From: Nitrospirales bacterium | Lineage (GTDB): Bacteria > Nitrospirota > Nitrospiria > Nitrospirales > UBA8639 | Direction: 5' to 3' | NCBI GenBank assembly: GCA_965261755.1 | Contig: OZ253473.1 | Span: 225,175 to 289,174 of the forward strand | DNA: 64,000 bases | Shown: piece after piece, positions 8,475 through 20,460 of the stretch | Position numbering within the stretch: position 1 is the first letter of the stretch | Layout: the number at the start of each line of letters is the position of its first letter | Notes under the pieces: generated by a model | What the model was told of the DNA's origin: nothing | What the model saw: the letters and a program-made list of their open reading frames with translations, nothing else | Database searches by the model: none | Translations under genes and position numbers: made by a program

Positions 8475-8870
8475 CTATGCCTTGACTACCAGCGGATGCC
8501 CGATTAGCTGACGATCAACGGTCAGGAGCTTGAGCCCCTCTTCCTGGGCCTGAACGAGCAGGATCTCGTCAAACGGATCTTTATGGGCAATGGGAATCTC
8601 CAGCGACCGGGCTGCGTGACTCGGGGTCATCGGCAGGAAGATGACGTCCTGGTCTTCAAGCATGTTGATCACCACGTTTGGGTCGAAGACATTCTTGCGC
8701 TTGCCCGACCGGTCCCGGATCTGGAATTTCAGCCGCATCTCCCAGATCGACACTGCGCTCACATAGAGCTGTATCGCCTGATTTGTGAGGATCAATCGCT
8801 CAGCATCGGATAAACGCGCGGGCTGCGTCGTTAATCGATAGAGATATGAAGTGTCAAGCAGAATCCGCAT
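8475..8870 (-). CDS. vapC: PIN-domain toxin, VapC family
   Basis: MRILLDTSYL at the N-terminus and HKDPFDEILLVQAQEEGLKLLTVD at the C-terminus are the PIN acidic residue pattern. It sits directly downstream of a small antitoxin gene. Confidence 0.8.
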   Translation of the reverse strand: MRILLDTSYLYRLTTQPARLSDAERLILTNQAIQLYVSAVSIWEMRLKFQIRDRSGKRKNVFDPNVVINMLEDQDVIFLPMTPSHAARSLEIPIAHKDPFDEILLVQAQEEGLKLLTVDRQLIGHPLVVKA

Positions 8871-8878
8871 GGGACAAC

Positions 8879-9133
8879 CTATTCGAGCCCGAGCACCTTG
8901 CGGCTGAACGCCGGATCATCAAATTGCTCGGGCCACTCCCTGGCGTCGTCTTTAATCCCGAGACGCTGACGTGCCTCGTTCAGTTTGTCGAAGTCAATCC
9001 CGCCAGGTTTGCGGAAGCGCACGAGTTCGACCGCCGGCGCTCCATGTTTCGTGATGACAATGCGCTCACCGCCCTGGGCGGCGGCGACAAGTTCGGAAAG
9101 GCGGGCTTTTGCCTGCCGCAGTGCAAATTCCAT
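8879..9133 (-). CDS. Phd/YefM-type antitoxin paired with the PIN toxin
   Basis: AKARLSELVAAAQGGERIVITKHGAPAVELV is the classic Phd/YefM N-terminal motif. The gap to vapC is 8 nt. Confidence 0.75.
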   Translation of the reverse strand: MEFALRQAKARLSELVAAAQGGERIVITKHGAPAVELVRFRKPGGIDFDKLNEARQRLGIKDDAREWPEQFDDPAFSRKVLGLE

Positions 9134-9830: not shown

Positions 9831-11603
9831 ATGAGTCAATTCTCTCGCCTGTTCCCGTTTGTCCGTCCTTATCTTTCTCAAATGGCATTGGCCGGTGTCC
9901 TGATCATGGGCGTGGCGGCCCTCAACCTGACGCTGCTCAAACTCGGCGGCACGCTGTGGGACCTCATCACGGTTCAACGTGACGTTGAACGCATGACGCA
10001 AACGATCCTGCTGTTTCTGGTGATCGCCATCATCCAAAGCACCTTGACCATGGGCCAGAGCTATCTGACCACCCGCCTGTCGCAGTTGGTCATCGCGGAT
10101 TTCCGCACCCACCTGTTTCGACATCTGCAAACCCTGTCTCTCAGCTTTTTTGCCAAACGGCGTACGGGGGAAATTCTCTCACGGCTCATGAACGACGTGG
10201 GCGTGATCCAGAACCTGGTGACCGAAACGCCCATCGATTCCGCCAAACAACTGGTGACGCTGATTGGCGGCCTTGCGTTCCTGTTGTTCATGAATTGGAA
10301 ACTCTGCCTGCTGATCGTCTTGTTGCTTCCCCTCCTGGTCTTGGTGGCGCGGTTGTTCGGAAAGCGGTTGAAATCTCTCTCCACGCAAATACAGGATCAC
10401 ACCGCCGCTCTTTCCACGCTCATTGAGGAAGTGATTTCAGGTATTCGAGTCGTGAAATCCTTTGTCCGGACGGACCGGGAGGAAGGACGATTCGGCGTCG
10501 CGGTCGACTCGTTGGTTGCCGGGACACTCCGCCGCGCCAAAATCCTTTCCGTGTTTATCCCCGTCATCACCCTCCTGACGTTCATGATGGCCGGAGTGGT
10601 CCTGTGGTACGGCGGCAAGCAAGTCATCGACGGGGCCATGACACCCGGGGACCTCCTGGCCTTCGTGTTGTTTGCAGGAATTTTAATCGGTCCGTTTGGA
10701 GCCGCGGCACGAATCTTTTCCCAAATGAAGGAGGGACAGGGTGCCCTGGAACGCGTCTTCGAGTTGCTCGACACCGCGCCGGAAGTGACGGACGCTCCGC
10801 AAGCCCACGCGTTGCGCGACGTTCAAGGCCACATCAAATTTTCACGCGTAAGTTTTGCGTATGACCCGCGTCACCCGGTGCTCACCGATCTCTCCTTCGA
10901 AGTGCATCCGGGCGAACTCGTGGCATTGGTGGGTCCGACCGGTTCGGGGAAAAGTACGATCGCGAACCTGTTGCACCGGTTTTATGATCCGACGGAAGGA
11001 TCCGTCACGATTGACCACCAGGACCTGCGGGACGTGCAATTGGCCGGCTTGTATCAACAGCTTGCCATCGTGCCTCAAGAAACCGTCCTGTTCGGGGATA
11101 CGATCCTGGAAAACATTCGATACGGACGAGAAAACGCATCGGAAGAGGACATTATGGCAGCGAGCCGGGCGGCTCATGCCCATGACTTCATTGCGTCGCT
11201 GCCGGATGGGTACACCACGCTGGTCGGGGAAAAAGGCGTCAATCTTTCGGGTGGTCAACGGCAACGCATTGCGATTGCCCGCGCCATCCTCAAAAATCCC
11301 CGGCTCTTAATTCTGGACGAAGCGACCTCGGCGCTGGATTCCGAATCCGAAATGCTGGTCCAACGTGCATTACAACGACTCATGACGGGACGGACGACCG
11401 TGGTCATCGCACACCGCCTCACGACCATTCAGGAAGCCGACCGGATTTTTGTTCTTAGCAAGGGCAGGATCGTCGAAGAAGGCACGCATACGGCATTGAT
11501 GCAACGGGACGGCCTGTATCGCCACCTGTATACGCTTCGGATGGTGGAATGGGAAACGCCGGCGTCTGTTGATACGTCAAGAGAACAATCCAGGCATGAC
11601 TAA
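9831..11603 (+). CDS. ABC transporter, fused permease/ATP-binding protein (MsbA/ABCB exporter type)
   Basis: Six-TM N-terminal half, then Walker A GPTGSGKST, signature LSGGQRQRIAIARA, Walker B LLILDEATSALD and H-loop VIAHRL. Confidence 0.9.
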   Translation: MSQFSRLFPFVRPYLSQMALAGVLIMGVAALNLTLLKLGGTLWDLITVQRDVERMTQTILLFLVIAIIQSTLTMGQSYLTTRLSQLVIADFRTHLFRHLQTLSLSFFAKRRTGEILSRLMNDVGVIQNLVTETPIDSAKQLVTLIGGLAFLLFMNWKLCLLIVLLLPLLVLVARLFGKRLKSLSTQIQDHTAALSTLIEEVISGIRVVKSFVRTDREEGRFGVAVDSLVAGTLRRAKILSVFIPVITLLTFMMAGVVLWYGGKQVIDGAMTPGDLLAFVLFAGILIGPFGAAARIFSQMKEGQGALERVFELLDTAPEVTDAPQAHALRDVQGHIKFSRVSFAYDPRHPVLTDLSFEVHPGELVALVGPTGSGKSTIANLLHRFYDPTEGSVTIDHQDLRDVQLAGLYQQLAIVPQETVLFGDTILENIRYGRENASEEDIMAASRAAHAHDFIASLPDGYTTLVGEKGVNLSGGQRQRIAIARAILKNPRLLILDEATSALDSESEMLVQRALQRLMTGRTTVVIAHRLTTIQEADRIFVLSKGRIVEEGTHTALMQRDGLYRHLYTLRMVEWETPASVDTSREQSRHD

Positions 11604-11649
11604 GATGTGCAAAGACCAAAAAAAAATTAAAACAATCTGAGATCGCTCT

Positions 11650-12264
11650 TTATGTTATCCTGGCAAAAATAACCTTCAACCTGTTCTCTACGCCCTGTCG
11701 CTCGACTTCGATCGAGAGAAATGGGTAGCGCTGAGCCAAAAAATTCATGGTGATGTCACCGTCAGCGAGATTCACAAGAAAATCGCACCTTTCCTGAACC
11801 AATCTATCGTCGGCGTTCAATTGCAAAATGTTGATGGTTGAATTGACCTTCTTGCTTAACTCCTGACCGAGTCCATCTCCTGGACGAATGAGACAACTGG
11901 GCAAATCCAAGACGAACCAGCCGATTTGGACTGTGAAGGGATCCACAATTTCCTCCGTATTGCCTTTCCGCACGTTAATCTTCTGCCGTGCAAGCCGGTA
12001 GTTGTCCCATTCGTAAGCCAAATACGGATATTTCGTTTTCGGGAGAAAATGGTCCACGGAGCCCGTGTCTAATAAACGCAGTGTCGTGTATGCACAACAA
12101 CATAAATATGCTTTGTGAAGACTTTTGGCAGCCCTTGACCAGTAGTTATGTTTCTTAAAGTCTTTGTCTGATGGGTTGCGATTTCCCCTGAGAAACGTTA
12201 GCCCAGGTTGCCGCACCCGAGCGTCGAACTCCGGGTACTCAGGCTGGGGGATCACGGGAATCAT
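11650..12264 (-). CDS. PtuB/TIGR02646-like HNH-family protein with a degenerate zinc-cysteine set
   Basis: CAYTTLRLLDTGSVDHFLPKTKYPYLAYEWDNYRLARQKINVRKGN aligns by eye to the PtuB-type C.YCE...(I/V)(D/E)H..P....P.L...W.NL...C..CN..K core. The first ATG (12264) overlaps the ATPase stop as ATGA. The 12300 start in the track is a TTG. Confidence 0.6.
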   Translation of the reverse strand: MIPVIPQPEYPEFDARVRQPGLTFLRGNRNPSDKDFKKHNYWSRAAKSLHKAYLCCCAYTTLRLLDTGSVDHFLPKTKYPYLAYEWDNYRLARQKINVRKGNTEEIVDPFTVQIGWFVLDLPSCLIRPGDGLGQELSKKVNSTINILQLNADDRLVQERCDFLVNLADGDITMNFLAQRYPFLSIEVERQGVENRLKVIFARIT

Positions 12265-14132
12265 AAATCGACGCCAAACCGCTCGGCAAAATACGTCCAA
12301 CGAGGCCAGAATGGATCGTCTGGAGCCAGCAATTGACGAAGCTTATCGGAGATCTCCTGCACCTTGGAAGCATCAGAAGTCGGGTTGAGTTGAATAGTTT
12401 TAGCCGTTTCAATCGCTTTTTCTGCATCACGGGAGCGAGCATGTTTCAAGCCGAAAACGGGAGAAGTCAGCCACGCCGAGATGTCTCCGTACTTTTGGAA
12501 CTCAAGAGGTTCCAGCACCACGTTTGATTCCTCAAGCGCGAGGTGGTACAAAACGTCCGCTTCCTCTGAAAAGTCGGCCTCGATAGATGCTAGAACCATC
12601 GGCGAATGAGTTGACGCAATGATCTGTATTTCAAGTTCCTCGCTGAGAAGCTTTCCGACACTCATCAAAGCCGGCAACATTGTCCTTTGCCAACGTGGAT
12701 GAAGATGAGCTTCCATCTCGTCCACCACGATGACCATCTTTCGAAGTGGTTCTTCGCCAATTTGCCGGGCTGCAACGATGTGCTCCTGCCAAGACCAGAT
12801 GACCAGATAAGCTAAAAGCAGAACGTGTTGAACGCCCGCTGATGAAAATATGATCGGCACGTCTCCGTAGGCGTGCTTTATTGTCGGAATCTGCCGTGGA
12901 TCGCCGGGTATACGCGTCGGCTCGCCTGGTGTGATAATGCCAAGGTCTTCCGGCGAGAGGCGTTCTAATACTCGGGCAAGCATGCGAAAAGCATGTTGTT
13001 CACGAGAAAGTTGCCAGTTGACCCAGTCTCGAACGAGACCTTCAATCTCCCCCGGCTTGCCGTCCCAAACTTCATTGCTGGTAAAAAAACTAACGTGAGA
13101 TTGATCGCCCACTTGTAGCTTCTCTCGCGTCTCGTCGGAAACCGCAAAAGAGCTATCGACTTTAGCATATATACAAAGCGCCGCTACAGATGGTCTTTCA
13201 TTTTGATGAATCCAAGAATGGTTTCCCCAATCGAATGAACTCGAACCAGACAATATTTGGTTTGTAGTACTACGAATCTCAAATTTTATGGTTGGGTTTA
13301 CTTCTTTCAGCCATACAAACGGAAAGGCTGGCTTGTCCACCCATTTTCCTGTAATCGCCCACCAAGCCACATCCAGTAGAAACGATTTACCTAAGCCGTT
13401 GTCACCAGCGATTAGGGTCAGCCTTTCGCCGAACTGAAGATCAAAGCTCTTCGCTGGCCCGATATCTCTTAGATGCAGCGCTGCAAGCGTTCCTCCCATC
13501 TCACCTGGAGCATCGGGAGGTGGCTCAACACCATAAGCGACGGCTTTCAGATCTGCAGGTTTATCATCGAAAAGTGTTTGGGCCGACAATTCTGAAGGCT
13601 TTTCTTTCGTGAAAAGATTGGTTCTTTCATCTGACGTTATATGATAGCTCTTCAAAAATTGCTTGATGACTGAGTTCAGCGAATCTTCGTCTTCCCATAC
13701 ATCATTCTTGCCAATCCAGATTGCAATTGCCGTGAGTGGAATGAATTTGTGGCCAGAAGAAGCTTTAACGGCCTGACTTATCTTCTCGACATAGTCTCCC
13801 TTGAAACCCCAACTTTGACCGCGTTTTTGGTGAATGAAGACCGGGCCAAACGTTTGAGTGTTAATAGCCTGTAGACCTGCCGAAGGGTATTTTTGCACGA
13901 CCCAAGGTTTGGTACTTTTGAAAGGTTGAAAATAAAATTTACTTTGTGGGTCTAATCGATGATGTGTTTTAAGATGTTCTTTTGTTAATGTATCCAGTTT
14001 CATGTGGACGGTTTCTTCGACTGGCAAACTCGCTTTCTTGCAAGCCAGGAAAGTGATGCCAAGGAAAGGGTGAGATCCTTTCCTTAGTTGACTAATTGCC
14101 CACAATACAGCGTTGCTCGACAAATACTTCAA
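12261..14132 (-). CDS. ABC-type (AAA_15/AAA_21-like, PtuA-like) ATPase with an unrecognised N-terminal domain of about 235 aa
   Basis: Walker A LIAGDNGLGKSF, signature-like FSSAGVQHVLLLAYL, Walker B MVIVVDEMEAHLHP and H-loop IASTHSP. The TTG start at 14132 is preceded by GAGG (14144-14141) and overlaps the methyltransferase stop (TTGA). Confidence 0.8.
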   Translation of the reverse strand: MKYLSSNAVLWAISQLRKGSHPFLGITFLACKKASLPVEETVHMKLDTLTKEHLKTHHRLDPQSKFYFQPFKSTKPWVVQKYPSAGLQAINTQTFGPVFIHQKRGQSWGFKGDYVEKISQAVKASSGHKFIPLTAIAIWIGKNDVWEDEDSLNSVIKQFLKSYHITSDERTNLFTKEKPSELSAQTLFDDKPADLKAVAYGVEPPPDAPGEMGGTLAALHLRDIGPAKSFDLQFGERLTLIAGDNGLGKSFLLDVAWWAITGKWVDKPAFPFVWLKEVNPTIKFEIRSTTNQILSGSSSFDWGNHSWIHQNERPSVAALCIYAKVDSSFAVSDETREKLQVGDQSHVSFFTSNEVWDGKPGEIEGLVRDWVNWQLSREQHAFRMLARVLERLSPEDLGIITPGEPTRIPGDPRQIPTIKHAYGDVPIIFSSAGVQHVLLLAYLVIWSWQEHIVAARQIGEEPLRKMVIVVDEMEAHLHPRWQRTMLPALMSVGKLLSEELEIQIIASTHSPMVLASIEADFSEEADVLYHLALEESNVVLEPLEFQKYGDISAWLTSPVFGLKHARSRDAEKAIETAKTIQLNPTSDASKVQEISDKLRQLLAPDDPFWPRWTYFAERFGVDL

Positions 14133-15004
14133 ACAATCGACCTCAGCGATTCAACCGCATAGAGACAGAACTCCCGGTTCAGATCAATTCCAATGCCCGA
14201 CCGGCCGGTTGAGATCGCGACTCTGACCGTTGTGCCACTTCCCACGAAAGGATCAAGAACAATACCCCCTTCAAGGCATCCAATTTCCAAACAGCGCTCG
14301 ACCAACTCGTCGGGAAATGGGGCCGTGTCCAGTCCATCGGTCGGCTTTGGCTGCGCCGCAATTGTCCACAAATCTTCATCGATCTTTTTGTCTATGAGTG
14401 GTTTCTTGTGGAAATAATATCGTCTGTTCTTCGCGAGGATGAACACATATTCATAGCTGCGTCCCGGACGATCCCGAACGGACTCAGGCAGCCGGTTCTT
14501 CCGGTGCCAGATCACCGAACTGCGGATGGCCCAACCGGACGATGCCAATCCAAGCCCAACGCGCCACGGAACGCCGATCAATGATTTCCGTTGCAGGTTG
14601 ATGCCAAGCCCACCGCTCTTGTCGACGGCTCGAAGGCCAAAACGTCTTTTCTTGCTCTTGCCGTCCTGACCATGAGACTCACCCTTACCGGAGTAGAACG
14701 TATCGCCGATATTTAGGAAAGCCAAGCCTTCGGACTTCAACACACGCCTCACCTCGCCCATAACGCTAGTTAAGACATCGACATACTCCCCGATGCTATC
14801 CTCCTGTCCGATCTGCCCTTTGACACCATAGTCACGAAGCCAGAAATAGGGCGGCGACGTGACGACGCAATCGACGCTCTCCGAAGGCATTTGCTGCAAC
14901 ACGTCAAGCGCCAGGCCGTAATAGATCGCCCAAGATGCACCTGAATGGGCTCGACCCCTCCAAGCATTTCCAGAATCGAAGTTTTCGATATCAAAAATGT
15001 CCAT
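14129..15004 (-). CDS. Beta-class DNA methyltransferase (N4-cytosine or N6-adenine; the SPPY motif favours N4C)
   Basis: Motif IV VVTSPPYFWLRDYG lies N-terminal and motif I VLDPFVGSGTT lies C-terminal, which is the beta permutation (N6_N4_Mtase family). Confidence 0.9.
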   Translation of the reverse strand: MDIFDIENFDSGNAWRGRAHSGASWAIYYGLALDVLQQMPSESVDCVVTSPPYFWLRDYGVKGQIGQEDSIGEYVDVLTSVMGEVRRVLKSEGLAFLNIGDTFYSGKGESHGQDGKSKKRRFGLRAVDKSGGLGINLQRKSLIGVPWRVGLGLASSGWAIRSSVIWHRKNRLPESVRDRPGRSYEYVFILAKNRRYYFHKKPLIDKKIDEDLWTIAAQPKPTDGLDTAPFPDELVERCLEIGCLEGGIVLDPFVGSGTTVRVAISTGRSGIGIDLNREFCLYAVESLRSIV

Positions 15005-15257
15005 GCTGTCACTGGCCTGTAACGGAGCAGGCTCGATCCGTAACAGTCATGCCAAATTCCAGTACTTGAGCACTATCTACTTGAACTACGTGGTTTGTAT
15101 CGATGGCTTTCAGAAATGTCTCGTAGGAACAGGATGCCGACTCGCCCTTGCCGAAAACATCATCTCTCATCCCGAGGTCAGTTGCAAGACTCTCTCGAAC
15201 GCTTCGCTCACTCAGCGACGAGAACGCGCATCGCGGCCTTTCCCATCATCCCCGTTA

Positions 15258-15920
15258 CTACTTGATCTTGGAAAAGTCCGCCTCGATCGTCACCAATTTC
15301 CCATCGGGGAAAAACACGACAATATTCGTCATGGCCTGCGGGTCAAAATCCTGATAGGCAAATCGGGCGGAAAACCGGGATACGTACTCCATCTCGGATC
15401 CGGGAATTTTCCGGCCGCGGCTGGGTTTGCCTTTATCCACGGCCATGATATTCGTCGATCCTTGTTGAAGCGCCACGTCGGCACCTTCGGCAAAAAACTC
15501 TTCTGGCCCGCACAGCCCGATCTCCATTTCAAGATTGGGCATATTCAGAATTTCATTGATTTTGGATTCCGGCATCCGGACTTCCTGTTGCGCGACCTTG
15601 GACCGCCGGCCTTCTTCGCGTCCGAAATATTCGAACCAATAGGTCTTCGTGCGTAAAATCGCGCTGCTTCCACAGGGTTTGGTCGCCGGATCGTCCCCAA
15701 TGCGGGTGGTTTTGTCCGCGGCTTTGATGATGCCGAACATTTCATCATTGGAAGCCGCCTGCTCCATGGGTCCTCGGGCTGAGGCCATGATCTGCGTGGC
15801 TTGCTCCGGGGTTAACTCGACGTCGATGGCAAACGCCGGCGAACCCATTCCTCCCAACACAAACAGTAGCATGAGCCCGAGTCCATTTTTCCGGTGGTTG
15901 TATCGTCCATATGAGCTCAT
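15258..15920 (-). CDS. Secreted hypothetical protein
   Basis: ATG at 15920 after a GGAGAG RBS. Signal peptide MSSYGRYNHRKNGLGLMLLFVLGGMGSPAFA. I recognise no domain. Confidence 0.55.
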   Translation of the reverse strand: MSSYGRYNHRKNGLGLMLLFVLGGMGSPAFAIDVELTPEQATQIMASARGPMEQAASNDEMFGIIKAADKTTRIGDDPATKPCGSSAILRTKTYWFEYFGREEGRRSKVAQQEVRMPESKINEILNMPNLEMEIGLCGPEEFFAEGADVALQQGSTNIMAVDKGKPSRGRKIPGSEMEYVSRFSARFAYQDFDPQAMTNIVVFFPDGKLVTIEADFSKIK

Positions 15921-16245
15921 GCGGTCTCTCCTTCTTCGTTTAGAAATGGATAACGACGGGATCAACAAAGAACAGACTTCCCGGCTGAATTGTAAGAAAC
16001 CTCCTTGCCTCTTTTCAACGCCTATCAGATCCCCGGTCTTCACACCGGAATGAGCAATGACGGGAAAGCAAATGGTTGACTCATCGGGGGCCGTAGTGTT
16101 AAATTTCGGCGCTTATCGTGCCTACTCCAAGTGGGCCTTCCAACGGTTGCTGGGCACAACGGAATCGCTCCCGTATCACGCTCTCCCGAATTCACGTTAT
16201 TGTAGCCGCAAGTGAACCGGTCGCTCAAACAAGCAAGGGGATGGC

Positions 16246-16914
16246 ATGGGAAATGGGATAAACCAACAGGAACAGGCCATGAACCTCGAAAATCTCGAGC
16301 GGGTCTATACGAATTACTCTTCGGTCTATGACCAAACCTTCGGGAAGGCCTTTGATCAATCGCGTAAATCGGCGGTGAAAGGCCTTCCCGTCTCTCCCGA
16401 TGATCACGTGCTGGAAGTCGGCGTCGGCACGGGTATGGCCTTGCCCCTGTATCCAACCCACTGTCGAATCGTGGGTATCGACCTCTCGGAAGGCATGCTG
16501 AAAAAGGCCGAGGAGCGCATTGCCAAGCACGGCCTCGAGCACGTCACGCTCCAGCGTATGGATGCGGGCCAAATGTCCTTCCCGGACGATACGTTCGACG
16601 TGGTCATGGCTGCCTACGTCGTGACCGCTGTCCCGGATTATCGGCAGGTCGTGTCGGAGATGATTCGCGTCTGCCGCCCCGGCGGTCGCATTGTCATGCT
16701 GAACCACTTCAGCAACGGCAATAAATTCATCGCCGCCGTCGAGAAACTGATTTCGCCCATCTGCCAGCGGATAGGGTTCCGCACGGATTTGTCCTTGGAT
16801 CGCGTGCTAGATGGCACGCCCCTCCAGGTCACGAAACAAGAAAAGATGGATCCTTTCCAGTATTGGTACCTGGTGGAATGCATGAACGCGAAAAACGGTT
16901 ATTCCCATTCGTAA
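16246..16914 (+). CDS. Class I SAM-dependent methyltransferase
   Basis: Motif I VLEVGVGTGMAL, later DTFDVVMAAYV and RVCRPGGRIVM (Methyltransf_11/25-like). Confidence 0.8.
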   Translation: MGNGINQQEQAMNLENLERVYTNYSSVYDQTFGKAFDQSRKSAVKGLPVSPDDHVLEVGVGTGMALPLYPTHCRIVGIDLSEGMLKKAEERIAKHGLEHVTLQRMDAGQMSFPDDTFDVVMAAYVVTAVPDYRQVVSEMIRVCRPGGRIVMLNHFSNGNKFIAAVEKLISPICQRIGFRTDLSLDRVLDGTPLQVTKQEKMDPFQYWYLVECMNAKNGYSHS

Positions 16915-16952
16915 TCGCGACGTCCTGATCCCCTCCTCAATCCGCCGTCACC

Positions 16953-17630
16953 ATGAAGCAGGCCCTGTGCCTCCAACACGTTCCCTTTGAAGGCCCCGGC
17001 GCGTTTCGGCAGGCGCTAGAGAAACGGCAGTATCAACTCGACTCGCTGCTGGTCCCTCAACGGGAACTCCCCGCCACGCCTCCGGATTTCCTCTTGGTCA
17101 TGGGAGGGCCCATGTCCGTGAATGATTCCGACCCCTGGATTGAAAAAGAACAACAGTTCATTCGACACACGATCGAGGCGGGCATTCCGGTGTTAGGCGT
17201 ATGCCTGGGCTCTCAATTCATGGCAAAGGCCTTGGGCGGACAGGTCCATCCCGGCCCTCGATTGGAAATCGGGCCGACCTTGGTCACGCGCACCGTCGAA
17301 GAAGACGCCGACGCTGTTTTTGGAACCTTTCCCCGCCAGTTCACGGTGTTTGAATGGCACGGCGAAGGGCTCACCCTGCCACCGGGGGCGTGCGTGCTCG
17401 CCTCGTCCGAATCCTATCCGGTTCAAGCCTTTCGATATGGCGACCGCGCCTACGGGCTCCTGTTTCATTTGGAATTGGAAGTCGAAGGCGTCGAAGCCCT
17501 CTGCCGTGAATGTCTCACCGACGTGCAACGGGCACAAACCACGACAGAAGCCTTGTTGGAATCAGCAAGGCACGTTCTTCCTGAATGCCATCGACTCGCC
17601 GACCGCCTCATCGCCCACCTGGCTAGCTAA
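16953..17630 (+). CDS. Class I glutamine amidotransferase-like protein
   Basis: Nucleophile elbow PVLGVCLGSQ and FHLE (His/Glu), a GATase1 pattern. The length of 225 aa fits a stand-alone GATase. Confidence 0.75.
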   Translation: MKQALCLQHVPFEGPGAFRQALEKRQYQLDSLLVPQRELPATPPDFLLVMGGPMSVNDSDPWIEKEQQFIRHTIEAGIPVLGVCLGSQFMAKALGGQVHPGPRLEIGPTLVTRTVEEDADAVFGTFPRQFTVFEWHGEGLTLPPGACVLASSESYPVQAFRYGDRAYGLLFHLELEVEGVEALCRECLTDVQRAQTTTEALLESARHVLPECHRLADRLIAHLAS

Positions 17631-17693: not shown

Positions 17694-17939
17694 AGCAATG
17701 TGCAAAAAATGCACATTGCAAATTCAGACAAGCCTGTAAATTTTTATTCCCTTGACGTCATTTTAGCAGTGGGTTATCGGGCGAATTCTGCCAAGGCCAT
17801 TGCATTCCGCAAGTGGGCGACAAATACCTTGAGACAACACCTCCTTGAAGGCTACACCATCAACAAAAAACGCATTGCCCTGAATTACGAGACATTCTTG
17901 AGGGCTGTTGGCGATGTCAAAAAGACAATGATTTCCTAA
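17694..17939 (+). pseudogene. rhuM: RhuM-family protein remnant, central fragment only
   Basis: VNFYSLDVILAVGYRANSAKAIAFRKWATNTLRQHLLEGYTINKKR matches the conserved RhuM core (YNLD.IISVGYRV.S..GT.FR.WAT..L..Y...G). The N- and C-terminal parts are missing. Confidence 0.65.
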
Positions 17940-17961
17940 CGTATGTCAATACTTGCCCAAG

Positions 17962-17979
17962 GCAAATAGGCCTATTTGC
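17962..17979. promoter_or_regulatory. Perfect 18-bp palindrome GCAAATAGG|CCTATTTGC
   Basis: Read directly from the sequence. It sits between the rhuM remnant and the first ORF of the TIR islet, followed by an A-run and with no T-run. It is an operator or hairpin candidate only. Confidence 0.3.
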
Positions 17980-18010
17980 AAAAAAGGTTGAAGGTGCTCT
18001 AATTGAAAGA

Positions 18011-18193
18011 ATGGCGACTTGGGTTGATGTCTTTCAGTTGTGTGAAATGTTTATGTCACAATCAGTAGAAGAACAGCCACGGGTTGCCGAAATACTAAAT
18101 GCAGTGAAAGGTAAAATAAAAACTTTAAGGACACTCGCTGAAAAACATCATGTGCAAAAATGCGGGTTGATGCGAAAACCGCTGACAGAGTAA
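18011..18193 (+). CDS. Hypothetical 60-aa protein (doubtful)
   Basis: ORF only, with a weak RBS and no recognisable motif. It lies in the AT-rich islet. Confidence 0.25.
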   Translation: MATWVDVFQLCEMFMSQSVEEQPRVAEILNAVKGKIKTLRTLAEKHHVQKCGLMRKPLTE

Positions 18194-18241
18194 TGGAGGG
18201 TGCAAGCATAGTGAGGTTTAGATAAAAGACAGGATCAAATC

Positions 18242-18664
18242 ATGGACGGCACAGAAAAAGTCGTAAAGCATCTGGAAATGACCCAAGCCGTTATCAACCG
18301 TTTGGGAAGCAACTCTTTCCTATTAAAAGGTTGGAGCATGACAATCATTGTCACTGCAATGGTTTTAATAGCCAGACATGACATACAACACCCATGTCTT
18401 ATCCTGTCCCTTATTATCCCCATCCTCGGATTTTGGACTCTGGATGGCTACTTTCTCTCGCAGGAAAGGTTGTTTCGGAAAATCTACGATGAGATCAGAC
18501 GTCAATCCGACACCGATTTTAAAATGGACGTGATGAAGCATAAAAATACGCCAAAATGCAGTTGGGCATCCGCCCTGTTTTCTCGCACGCTTAACATTTT
18601 CTATTTGGCAGAGGTTGGATTGACTGTTTTTGTGTTTTTCATAATTTCGGTGGGGGCATTATGA
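18242..18664 (+). CDS. Small 3-TM membrane protein, candidate effector partner of the TIR-like protein (possibly SLATT-like)
   Basis: Predicted TM segments are WSMTIIVTAMVLIA, CLILSLIIPILGFWTLDGYF and LNIFYLAEVGLTVFVFFIISVGAL, with a charged loop in between. Its stop overlaps the next gene's ATG (ATGA at 18661-18664). Confidence 0.6.
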   Translation: MDGTEKVVKHLEMTQAVINRLGSNSFLLKGWSMTIIVTAMVLIARHDIQHPCLILSLIIPILGFWTLDGYFLSQERLFRKIYDEIRRQSDTDFKMDVMKHKNTPKCSWASALFSRTLNIFYLAEVGLTVFVFFIISVGAL

Positions 18665-19251
18665 GAAGAGTATTTTTTAGTTTTGATTGGGACGACGTGT
18701 GGCGAGTCAACCAGGTCCGCAACAGTTGGGTTACAAAAGGCAACCATGAAATAGCAGGCTTTGTCGATGCGGCAGAGATAGAAAAGGTCAAGAACCAAAC
18801 GGACAAAGCAATCCAAAAATGGATAGATGAGCAGATGAGAGGAACATCTGTTACTTGTATCTTGATCGGCAGCAAAACAGATGAATGTAAATGGGTGAAA
18901 TACGAGATCGAAAAGAGCATTGAGAAAAAAAATGGCCTCTTGGGAGTCCTTATTCACAACTTAAAAGATGTTGCTGGCAAAACAGATGAAAGGGGATCTA
19001 ATCCCCTGGGCGATTACAATGAGGATGATTTTGGCGAGACAGTTAAAAGAGCTCTGCTTGGAGGGGGCGCTGGGTGGGGACTTGCAAGATTTGTTTTTCC
19101 TCAACTTGTCATTCCAGCCACTATTTTTGGAGCTGCTCTTGCCCTCCTAGCGTCAAATGACGATTACAAGATTTATGATTGGGATGAAGATGGCGGATAT
19201 AAAAACTTGGGCGACTGGATAGAAAAAGCCGCTGAACAAGTGGGTAGATAA
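18661..19251 (+). CDS. TIR-like domain protein (ThsB/DUF1863 type) with a C-terminal TM helix
   Basis: RVFFSFDWDDVWRVNQVRNSW and TSVTCILIGSKTDECKWVKYEIEKSIEKKNGLLGVLIH match the DUF1863/ThsB pattern, including the W..YEI glutamate. The C-terminal FVFPQLVIPATIFGAALALLA is hydrophobic. Confidence 0.7.
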   Translation: MRRVFFSFDWDDVWRVNQVRNSWVTKGNHEIAGFVDAAEIEKVKNQTDKAIQKWIDEQMRGTSVTCILIGSKTDECKWVKYEIEKSIEKKNGLLGVLIHNLKDVAGKTDERGSNPLGDYNEDDFGETVKRALLGGGAGWGLARFVFPQLVIPATIFGAALALLASNDDYKIYDWDEDGGYKNLGDWIEKAAEQVGR

Positions 19252-19267
19252 AGAGCACTGCCACAAA

Positions 19268-19966
19268 TTGGAAAATCTATCTGTGAAAACGACAAGCCCC
19301 TCACATCCGCGCAACCTGTATATGTTTGTGGATGAAGGCGGAAATTTCGACTTTTCCGAAAAAGGAACGGCTTTCTTTACCCTGACTTGTGTAGCAATAG
19401 AGCGTCCTTTCAGGATTTACCAACAAATTGATAACTACAAATACGATTTAATTGAACATGACTTTCCTTTGGAATTTTTTCACTGCGCCGAAGACAACAA
19501 GCACATCAGATCCAAAATGCTGAGTCTTATCAAAAAGTATCTATCAAAACTTCAAATTGACAGTTTGATTGTTGAGAAGCATAAGACTTCCCCTTCTCTT
19601 CAGGACCCAAAAGAATTCTATCCGCGTATGCTGGGCTACCTATTAGCCTATGTTTTGAGAGATTATCGATCCGGTCAATTCAAGAAAATAGTGATCATCA
19701 CAGACAGCATGCCGGAAGCGAGCAAACGCAAAGCAATGGAAAAATCAACCAAAGCGATTCTGGCAACAATGTTGCCCACAGGTACGAACTATACCATCCT
19801 GCATCATGCAGCCAAGTCTCACTACGGTCTCCAGATTGTTGACTATTGTAACTGGAGTATTTTCAGAAAATGGGAGCGTAGTGATAATGAACACTATGGC
19901 ATAATCGAATCGGCTATACGAAGCGAATTTGACATCTTTCTGACTGGAAAAAGAAGGTATTACTGA
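19268..19966 (+). CDS. DUF3800-family protein
   Basis: N-terminal LYMFVDEGGNFDF and C-terminal HYGLQIVDYCNWSI match the DUF3800 D-E-G...Q.aD pattern. The start is uncertain (TTG 19268, GTG 19283 or ATG 19322). Confidence 0.65.
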   Translation: MENLSVKTTSPSHPRNLYMFVDEGGNFDFSEKGTAFFTLTCVAIERPFRIYQQIDNYKYDLIEHDFPLEFFHCAEDNKHIRSKMLSLIKKYLSKLQIDSLIVEKHKTSPSLQDPKEFYPRMLGYLLAYVLRDYRSGQFKKIVIITDSMPEASKRKAMEKSTKAILATMLPTGTNYTILHHAAKSHYGLQIVDYCNWSIFRKWERSDNEHYGIIESAIRSEFDIFLTGKRRYY

Positions 19967-20100
19967 TGGGAGGGATAGAAACGACCTCCCCAACTACTCT
20001 GTTGCCAGAGAGAGCCCCTTGGGCTCTTTCATCGGGGAGGTACCTTTGTTGTAATCCTAAAACGGCAAAAAACAAAAGTCAAACAAGCGTTGCTCGCAAT

Positions 20101-20460
20101 ATCTGCACTTCCATAAAAGATAAAAACGACCTTCAACACCTGCTTGGCTATGAGCAATGGAAGAACTTTAAAACAGTTATTGACAAGACCAGAACTACCT
20201 GTGAGGTGGCGGGACATAATGTTTCCAATCATTTTGCCGACGTCGGCAAAACGATAAAAATGCCCAAAGGAGCGGAAAAGACCATAGATGATTTTATGCT
20301 CACCGGCTACACCTGCTACCTCATCGCCCAGAACGGCGACCTCGTAATATCACCAATAACGAAAACGTCCGGAATACTTTACTTGAAAGAGACATCAGAC
20401 CGGGAATTTTGCCGCCCGGCGAAGATGTGAAAAAAGTGGAATCGTCAACTCGACCGTCGC
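20101..20460 (+). pseudogene. dinD: DNA-damage-inducible protein D (DinD) remnant with an internal deletion/frameshift
   Basis: LLGYEQWKNFKTVIDKTRTTCEVAGHNVSNHFADV...FMLTGYTCYLIAQNGD matches the DinD core. After IAQNGD the conserved tail (NENVRNTLLERDIRPGILPPGEDVKKVE) appears only in another frame. The N-terminus is absent. Confidence 0.6.

Follow-up and report, generated by a model that had tools for sequence, protein, structure and literature searches.

Septu type I, in which an ABC ATPase (PtuA) is paired with an HNH nuclease (PtuB), was reportedly described by Doron et al. in 2018. By definition Septu has two genes (PMC8565338; bioRxiv 2024.10.26.620412), and in reviews and structural papers published up to 2026 these two genes either stand alone or are associated with a retron (PMC12819146; bioRxiv 2024.10.26.620412; PMC12673091). 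The types set out in the PADLOC paper are Septu I and Septu II (the retron form), with none that joins a methyltransferase to PtuAB (PMC8565338). In type I-A retrons it is an upstream gene that gates PtuAB: the complex of reverse transcriptase (RT) and multicopy single-stranded DNA (msDNA) holds PtuAB inactive, and the N-terminal extension of PtuA is among the parts that contact this partner (PMC12819146). PtuA and PtuB form an ATPase–nuclease complex that nicks supercoiled DNA in vitro (PMC12819146), and PtuAB of Escherichia coli Septu and of retron-Eco7 is reported to deplete tRNA-Tyr in infected cells (PMC13096335; PMC12673091). The locus analysed here is a three-gene cassette lying in a 64,000-nucleotide stretch of DNA from a Nitrospirales bacterium (assembly GCA_965261755.1, contig OZ253473.1, positions 225,175 to 289,174; this whole stretch is referred to as the window). 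In it, a PtuAB pair is headed by a DNA methyltransferase gene, and its PtuA carries a large N-terminal domain (hereafter N-domain). The parts of the cassette are as follows:

14129-15004, minus strand: DNA methyltransferase, 291 residues, first gene of the operon
12261-14132, minus strand: PtuA ATPase, 623 residues, TTG start, second gene of the operon
13518-14132, minus strand: N-domain of PtuA (residues 1-205), mostly helical and mildly basic, modelled with AlphaFold2 (AF2)
12261-13517, minus strand: ABC/OLD-family ATPase body and C-terminal region of PtuA (residues 206-623), from PADLOC, Pfam and PDB matches
11650-12264, minus strand: PtuB HNH nuclease, 204 residues from its ATG, third gene of the operon
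14129-14144, minus strand: methyltransferase/PtuA junction, with GAGG at 14144-14141, an 8-nucleotide spacer and TTG at 14132-14130, read directly from the sequence
12261-12264, minus strand: PtuA/PtuB junction ATGA, the PtuB ATG (12264-12262) lying over the PtuA TGA (12263-12261), also read directly

An earlier annotation made from the letters of the sequence alone (the original prediction) had proposed three translationally coupled genes on the minus strand at these positions, with a TTGA overlap preceded by GAGG 8 nucleotides upstream and an ATGA overlap further on, and direct reading confirmed each of these elements. In the first overlap, the TTG start of PtuA shares bases with the methyltransferase stop codon (TGA, 14131-14129). 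In the program-made list of open reading frames (ORFs), that of PtuB can be prolonged upstream to a TTG at 12300.

The original prediction had named co-occurrence of the trio in other genomes as a check on the cassette, and the trio proved to be conserved. One genome per species (185,579 species) was scanned using an alignment of long PtuA homologues as the seed; the counts given for genome loci refer to the best 80 of 548 confirmed PtuA relatives, and neighbours were recognised by tblastn with the window proteins. In 60 of the 80 loci, the gene immediately preceding PtuA, in the same orientation, was a full-length orthologous methyltransferase (its identity to that of the window was usually 47–72%, and 35–40% in an alphaproteobacterial group), and PtuB lay directly downstream of PtuA in 77. 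The gap between methyltransferase and PtuA ranged from –13 to +31 nucleotides in 59 of the 60 loci, and PtuA and PtuB overlapped by the four nucleotides ATGA in 71 of the 77. Trio-bearing loci came from more than 15 phyla, including the archaea Methanosarcina and Methanotrichaceae. The 80 loci span Spirochaetota, Chloroflexota, Alpha-, Beta- and Gammaproteobacteria, Acidobacteriota, Bacillota, Cyanobacteriota, Desulfobacterota, Planctomycetota, Bacteroidota, Myxococcota, Nitrospinota, Calditrichota and others, two of them being from methanogenic archaea; among the cultured carriers are Lonsdalea britannica, Pectobacterium brasiliense, Sphingopyxis, Rhizobium, Bradyrhizobium, Pelotomaculum, Pseudoflavonifractor, Dyadobacter and Methanosarcina. 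When the search was run in the opposite direction, the best 120 methyltransferase homologues were all at least 64% identical to the query, and about 50 of them lay on contigs equal in length to those of top PtuA matches. Three homologues outside those ∼50 (64–74% identity) were each followed by a gene for an AAA_15/AAA_21 protein of ∼600–620 residues, and the gene after that matched the window PtuB in all three. Since the same gene order recurs with tiny or negative gaps in 60 of 80 loci from many phyla, the arrangement is far beyond chance; the fortuitous adjacency of an orphan methyltransferase was considered and is ruled out by these synteny statistics. The trio is a conserved and widely distributed three-gene module that travels as one cassette across many phyla. 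Evolutionary distances of methyltransferase and PtuA were correlated (r = 0.66, Mantel P ≤ 0.001). When N-domain and ATPase body were compared for co-evolution with the methyltransferase, partial Mantel values were weak in both directions (0.22, that of methyltransferase with N-domain, and 0.32). No conserved fourth gene was found in the flanking ORFs of 58 loci, where a C-protein and a classical restriction endonuclease were looked for; the commonest flanking family, the HigB/HigA toxin–antitoxin pair, occurred in at most six of the 58. The TTG start assigned to PtuA in the window is not a conserved family feature, since 70 of 80 homologues use ATG (starts as assigned in this analysis).

The methyltransferase is tied to one form of PtuA only. 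The ATPase body is most closely related to short PtuA proteins of ∼415–430 residues, 36–45% identical over residues 216-620 of the window protein, and three plasmid-borne examples of this short form were plain PtuA–PtuB pairs with no methyltransferase. When metagenomes were scanned with short forms as the seed, 80 loci were obtained; the N-domain was present in only two, exactly the two that had the methyltransferase. On viral contigs, the single long form was accompanied by the methyltransferase and four short forms were not. Pooling all loci with enough upstream sequence from both seeding directions gave the following:

PtuA with N-domain, 78 loci: intact methyltransferase in 64, remnant in 4, none in 10
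Short-form PtuA without N-domain, 60 loci: intact PF01555-type methyltransferase in 0, remnant in 0, none in 60

The N-domain and the methyltransferase thus occur together and are absent together (64/78 versus 0/60). Fisher's test for the association of N-domain and linked methyltransferase gave P = 7e-26, a value that ignores phylogenetic non-independence; the pattern spans many phyla. The PF01555 enzyme is specific to the lineage of PtuA proteins that bear the N-domain.

A different methyltransferase was found beside some short forms. Five of 43 ORFs upstream of short-form PtuA encode Eco57I/MmeI-type methyltransferase proteins of 1029–1425 residues that abut PtuA. In these five loci (L101:730-5007, L133:1107-4976, L159:1125-4976, L153:1508-5023 and L141:131-3220), the N6-adenine methyltransferase protein directly precedes PtuAB, the gene ends abutting or overlapping. 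They represent another, independent case in which PtuAB is coupled to a DNA methyltransferase. The other upstream neighbours of short forms included N6_Mtase, 5-methylcytosine (m5C) methyltransferase, GmrSD and HsdR genes, and PtuAB appears to have a tendency to pair up with modification systems.

The N-domain that marks the long lineage matched no known family in the searches made. Its AF2 model (predicted local distance difference test score, pLDDT, 88.9; predicted template modelling score 0.88) is mostly helical with a short beta-hairpin. A profile search gave no PDB sequence match at E ≤ 10, Foldseek gave no match with E < 1 in PDB or BFVD (template modelling score, TM, < 0.3), and the window protein and 33 homologues had no Pfam family in this region beyond scattered chance matches; winged-helix proteins in the Foldseek output fell among the noise and were not counted as evidence. 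When searched against 1.84 billion representative proteins, the N-domain profile matched only 236 clusters, in which the domain always formed residues 1 to ∼200 of PtuA-like proteins (∼600–670 residues) or of fragments, and the fragmentary proteins ran on into a Walker A motif. Judged by these matches, the N-domain is confined to this long PtuA lineage. Its mean isoelectric point is ∼8, versus 5.7 for the ATPase part of PtuA, and it has an invariant set of aromatic and histidine residues: HPF (21-23), FQPF (68-71), W77, Y82, W139, K142 and W146.

The rest of PtuA is that of a Septu ATPase. The PADLOC Septu model PDLC00270 matched residues 3-623 (3e-241, 800 bits; model positions 2-627 of 627), and since the match takes in the N-terminal extension, the latter already sits inside a Septu profile; the short-form PADLOC model PDLC00307 matched residues 216-619 only (4.5e-139). 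The Pfam domains AAA_15, AAA_21 and AAA_23 all fall in the C-terminal two thirds. Walker A (GDNGLGKS, residues 243-250), Walker B (VVDE, 469-472) and the H-loop (THS, 508-510) are present and are invariant in the alignment of PtuA homologues. The sequence matches in PDB were the PtuA proteins of retrons Ec78 and Ec83 and that of E. coli Septu (8ee4), the similarity to these solved structures being limited to the C-lobe of the ATPase (E ∼1e-6 to 1e-9).

PtuB likewise matched a PADLOC Septu model over its full length (PDLC00348, 2e-64, model positions 1-195 of 198), and NCBIfam NF041761 at 2e-9, which is under the cutoff of that model. It consists of an HNH core and a C-terminal helical domain. 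In its AF2 model, built from a 43-sequence alignment, pLDDT was 95.1, and the top 11 Foldseek matches in PDB were all PtuB chains, from retrons Ec78 and Ec83 and from E. coli Septu (8eea_G); their probability was 1.00 and their TM 0.57–0.66. PtuB had been described in the original prediction as a degenerate HNH protein. This holds for the zinc-binding cysteines, most of which are missing, but not for the catalytic residues: the core positions C57, D/E71-H72, N88, N97 and K100 do not vary among 58 homologues and, by this conservation, PtuB is not catalytically degenerate.

The methyltransferase matched Pfam PF01555 (N6_N4_Mtase, 6e-42) and, over its full length, the PADLOC model MTase_II (PDLC03387, 6e-80). 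Motif IV (TSPPY, residues 49-53; SPPY, 50-53) precedes motif I (FVGSG, an FxGxG motif, residues 253-257), an order by which the enzyme is classed as a beta-class methyltransferase. The placing of a beta-class SPPY methyltransferase at the head of the operon, made when the cassette was first noticed, is therefore upheld by motif order and by the PF01555 match. SPP[YF] is typical of N4-cytosine methyltransferases and DPPY of N6-adenine enzymes. The closest PDB sequences were TTHA0409 (2zie) and the DNA cytosine-N4 methyltransferases 8s9m and 8s9n. TSPP[YF] was invariant in 58 of 58 operon-linked orthologues, as was FxGxG, and the methyltransferase is the most conserved member of the trio (mean pairwise identity 54%, versus 44% for PtuA and 42% for PtuB). 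From these motifs the enzyme is apparently active on DNA, and its product is probably N4-methylcytosine (m4C).

How the cassette stands to described systems can now be considered. Both its profile matches and its fold place the ATPase/nuclease pair in Septu, and it is already catalogued. The likeness to Septu noted in the original prediction is thus borne out, but it is more than a resemblance, the pair being already covered by the PADLOC Septu set of hidden Markov models (HMMs). With Septu type I it shares end-to-end HMM matches, gene order, the 4-nucleotide overlap and all ATPase motifs, and its PtuB model superposes on E. coli 8eea_G. It differs in having a conserved third gene, the SPPY methyltransferase, at the operon head, and in the 205-residue N-domain, which is absent from the PtuA proteins of experimentally studied Septu systems. 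The two-gene definition does not describe these loci, given the methyltransferase found upstream in 64 of the 78 that carry the N-domain and its remnants in 4. Since the PADLOC models match PtuA, PtuB and MTase_II, current tools would call Septu plus a lone type II methyltransferase. The type I-A retrons, or PADLOC Septu type II (RT, non-coding RNA, PtuA and PtuB; Ec78/Eco7 and Ec83), resemble the cassette in that an extra upstream gene precedes PtuAB, and the solved PtuA and PtuB proteins closest in sequence are retron ones. In the cassette, however, the upstream gene encodes a DNA methyltransferase and not a reverse transcriptase, and the N-domain is a full folded domain of 205 residues where retron PtuA has a short extension. 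No RT domain was found in the flanking ORFs scanned, and a search of positions 10500-17000 for a retron non-coding RNA gave no Rfam match apart from one chance match.

Restriction-modification (R-M) systems offer a second comparison. Multi-subunit R-M systems that depend on ATP include type III (Mod/Res) and the type II systems CglI and NgoAVII, which have R and ATPase proteins. As in these, a methyltransferase, a separate NTPase and a nuclease are encoded in one operon; type III Mod is also a beta-class methyltransferase, and that of the cassette could plausibly act as a specificity subunit. The differences are that the motor of the cassette is an ABC/OLD-family ATPase and not a superfamily 2 helicase, that its nuclease is a separate HNH protein and not a PD-(D/E)xK or PLD domain, and that its methyltransferase is of the N4-cytosine type (SPPY) and not of the N6-adenine type (DPPY). 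Pfam searches found no ResIII or helicase domain in any of the three proteins. The methyltransferase is what would be expected of a type II R-M enzyme, with its Pfam and MTase_II matches and intact motifs IV and I; a stand-alone, ATP-independent restriction endonuclease was not found, the sole nuclease in the trio being PtuB, part of an ABC ATPase-dependent complex, and no other gene being conserved. A type IV (modification-dependent) reading was rejected, as the cassette would mark its own host for attack. The restriction-associated ATPase model TIGR04435 scored 23.9 bits against a cutoff of 300, and the MAD3 model of MADS (NF047739) 23.2 bits against a cutoff of 420. MADS and Hma are alike in being candidate defence systems that contain a methyltransferase; Hma (helicase, m5C methyltransferase and ATPase) is often found near Septu type I (PMC8565338), but the cassette has no helicase and its methyltransferase belongs to PF01555, not to the m5C enzymes. 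PARIS (AriA/AriB) has a TOPRIM/DUF4435 nuclease in place of HNH, and matches to AriA were only weak. The nearest published idea is that of dyads of an OLD-ABC ATPase and a nuclease, HNH-linked ones included, reported in a comparative study of 2026 as back-up modules recruited to BREX and related loci (PMC12839542). There too an ABC ATPase–nuclease module is tied to a methylation-based system, but the partner in the cassette is a small stand-alone beta-class methyltransferase with no PglX, PglZ or BrxC, and the linkage runs to a dedicated N-domain of PtuA. A methyltransferase–PtuAB system was not found in the literature and profile libraries searched, a scope outside which REBASE and Krishnan et al. 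2020 fall, so that a passing earlier mention is possible. The view in the original prediction that the trio is not a named system stands to the extent that no paper or profile library found gives it a name; its PtuA/PtuB pair does have one, namely Septu. The methyltransferase linkage, and its exclusive tie to the N-domain of PtuA, appear to be undescribed.

The reading that we put forward, and which in our judgement stands an even chance of being right, is that the cassette is a methylation-gated Septu, a module resembling R-M systems built on a PtuAB chassis. The methyltransferase would methylate its target sites on host DNA (probably as m4C), and the N-domain would link the PtuA/PtuB complex to the methylation state, either by docking on methyltransferase engaged at unmethylated sites, so that the latter would serve as a specificity subunit as in type I and type III systems, or by reading the DNA itself. 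Incoming unmethylated DNA would activate the ATPase assembly and license PtuB, which might nick or cleave DNA or, like other PtuAB pairs, cleave tRNA and abort the infection. That methylation would protect self DNA while the effector attacks DNA lacking the mark had already been proposed in the original prediction, and is plausible. Of the two routes, docking on the methyltransferase is favoured on comparative grounds because the N-domain motifs persist in the alphaproteobacterial group despite a methyltransferase identity of only 35–39%, a persistence not easily squared with an N-domain that reads one particular DNA sequence. The gating itself is inferred by analogy with type I-A retrons, which provide a precedent: there an additional sensor has co-opted PtuAB through the N-terminal extension of PtuA (PMC12819146). 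A bolder formulation, which we hold tentatively and think somewhat more likely to be wrong than right, is that these cassettes make up a new class of ATP-dependent R-M system, in which a small m4C methyltransferase would serve both as self mark and as specificity or sensor subunit, the N-domain, a new protein fold, would signal an unmethylated site to the ABC ATPase/HNH pair, and the whole would have spread horizontally among more than 15 phyla of bacteria and into methanogenic archaea. On this formulation, a stand-alone Septu lineage would for the first time have a defined molecular trigger.

Several observations weigh against methylation gating. Fourteen of the 78 N-domain loci (∼18%) have no intact linked methyltransferase (10 none, 4 remnants), and these 14 retain intact Walker A and B motifs, H-loop and HNH wherever they could be read (PtuB lies beyond the contig end in two). 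Under a strict R-M logic such loci would be lethal unless the cell had an unlinked methyltransferase of the same specificity, and their intact PtuAB argues against that logic. In Foldseek (PDB and BFVD) and Pfam searches, no fold for DNA binding or base reading could be recognised in the N-domain. Nor does the N-domain obviously track methyltransferase specificity, since in the alphaproteobacterial loci, with a methyltransferase 35–39% identical to that of the window, its divergence does not exceed that seen in loci of similar relatedness, and the partial Mantel value is 0.22. Direct restriction of DNA is not guaranteed either, known PtuAB pairs acting on tRNA-Tyr and only nicking DNA in vitro. 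Finally, no experimentally tested member of this subfamily was found in the literature.

The loci without an intact methyltransferase are not all alike. Six long PtuA–PtuB loci from Nostocales (L044, L049, L055, L058, L059 and L060, from Dolichospermum, Anabaena and Cuspidothrix) have no linked methyltransferase; four of them are among the 78, while L049 and L058 have too little upstream sequence to exclude one. In all six, the N-domain motif HPF is changed to DSF and QPF to RCF, with the ATPase and HNH residues intact, and the genes upstream in the other Nostocales loci are unrelated (e.g. DUF29 or glutaminase). These altered motifs hint at a changed partner. In three other loci without an intact methyltransferase (L054, L004 and L068), the N-domain motifs are unchanged. 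The carriers that lack the methyltransferase also include Symploca and two metagenome-assembled genomes (L054 and L079). Remnants of the methyltransferase lie behind a 1112-residue Eco57I-like protein in L031:518-4158 and behind a 1139-residue UvrD-helicase/PD-(D/E)xK protein in L068:1973-6007. In L016:382-3228 a frameshifted methyltransferase is accompanied by a PtuB shortened to ∼60 residues, and in the cultured plant pathogen Pectobacterium brasiliense (GCA_016950085.1, L227:2223-5618) PtuA is present as two ORFs (276 and 331 residues), either a disrupted ATPase or an assembly error, with methyltransferase and PtuB intact. The decay in the latter two, with the methyltransferase kept where PtuA is split, is compatible with R-M logic.

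The alternative that survives best, although we regard it as unlikely, is a sequestration like that of retrons, in which the methyltransferase protein, by itself or on DNA, would be an antitoxin bound to the N-domain of PtuA, and a phage factor removing, titrating or inhibiting it would set PtuAB free to kill, for instance through tRNA cleavage; the trigger could be a loss of SAM (S-adenosylmethionine), an inhibitor of the methyltransferase or an excess of target sites, and methylation of self DNA would be secondary or irrelevant to discrimination. This explanation fits the coupling as well as methylation gating does. It would account for the co-occurrence of N-domain and methyltransferase, with translational coupling giving matched dosage, and an N-domain that does not follow methyltransferase divergence is what would be expected if it contacted a conserved methyltransferase core; moreover, PtuA of retron Ec78 contacts its sequestering partner by an N-terminal extension (PMC12819146), and known PtuAB effectors act by abortive tRNA cleavage (PMC13096335). 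The same 14 loci that trouble methylation gating tell against it, however, since an intact PtuAB with no intact methyltransferase would be self-toxic, and the invariance of TSPP[YF] and FxGxG in all 58 orthologues implies that enzymatic activity is under selection and that the protein is not a scaffold alone.

Less likely are the three remaining explanations. One, which we consider quite unlikely, is that two independent functions share a mobile cassette, an orphan methyltransferase and an ordinary Septu whose N-domain senses a phage protein; the role then given to the methyltransferase, just as unlikely, would be to shield the DNA of the element or host from other restriction systems, or a regulatory one. 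Defence genes do cluster in islands, short PtuAB pairs lie beside assorted R-M genes, PtuAB persists without the methyltransferase in ∼18% of loci, and the AT-richness of the cassette relative to its flanks, together with its varied contexts, suggests mobility. Yet clustering in islands would not place one orthologous methyltransferase family at a constant position and in a constant orientation, with a stop/start overlap, in more than 15 phyla, nor would it explain why none of the 60 short-form loci has this methyltransferase and why the methyltransferase homologues of the reverse search were followed by long PtuA in three cases out of three. Decidedly improbable is a guard of the PARIS kind, in which PtuAB with its N-domain would monitor the methyltransferase or the methylation and fire on an anti-restriction factor such as a DNA mimic or a SAM lyase: OLD-type ABC ATPase–nuclease dyads have been recruited to BREX-type systems and PARIS senses Ocr (PMC12839542), but the cassette has no restriction component for a phage to inhibit and no conserved fourth gene, and a lone methyltransferase is not an obvious anti-restriction target. 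A role outside defence (DNA repair, chromosome maintenance or a selfish addiction module), for which weak matches to Rad50/RecF/RecN-type ABC ATPases and the rarity of the trio on predicted viral contigs (one long-form locus among 56 matches) might speak, is scarcely credible in view of the full-length Septu profile matches, the PtuB fold, the patchy taxonomic distribution, the atypical GC content, the varied neighbourhoods and the toxin–antitoxin modules and other defence genes nearby.

For Septu, ATP level and a tail-fibre trigger have been proposed as what is sensed, and DNA or tRNA-Tyr as the target (PMC12819146; PMC13096335; bioRxiv 2024.10.26.620412). A lineage in which PtuAB is hard-wired to a methyltransferase offers a simple candidate trigger, the methylation state of DNA. 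Were methylation gating true, it would show PtuAB to have been plugged into at least two sensing modules, the RT-msDNA of retrons and a methyltransferase; if the R-M logic held, R-M systems would gain a new architecture that combines an ABC ATPase with an HNH nuclease and an m4C methyltransferase. Annotation pipelines split the trio into "Septu" and "orphan type II methyltransferase", which inflates orphan counts and hides the dependency between the genes.

In base composition the cassette (49.1% GC) differs from the window (55.6%) and from its flanking genes (56–57%). The AT-richness claimed for it is therefore real, but the 38–47% GC first quoted overstates the dip. By part, the methyltransferase gene has 53.4% GC, PtuA 47.4% and PtuB 47.8%, the lowest value being that of the N-domain, the 5′ third of the ATPase gene (42.4%). 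Scans for promoter and terminator consensus sequences did no better than on shuffled sequence. The flanks are as first assigned: on the left an ABC exporter, with Walker A, signature and Walker B motifs seen in its translation, and on the right a 261-residue protein with a signal-peptide-like N-terminus, for which there was no Pfam match. About 2.5 kb from the cassette lies a VapC-type PIN toxin (8475-8870, minus strand; Pfam PIN, 2.9e-12) paired with a Phd/YefM antitoxin (8879-9133, minus strand). A second low-GC island in the window (17700-20430, plus strand; 42.8% versus 55.6% GC) contains a RhuM-family fragment (17700-17939), a 140-residue hydrophobic ORF (18242-18664) that overlaps the gene of a ThsB_TIR-like protein (18661-19251; PF08937, 1.6e-23), and two more ORFs (19268-19966 and 19966-20430); it may be another defence module. 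Near the cassette there is also a class I SAM-dependent methyltransferase of the small-molecule type (Methyltransf_11/25; 16246-16914, plus strand). A similar gene is found just downstream of PtuB in the loci L087-L090 (L087:7591-8526), and this is probably a coincidence.

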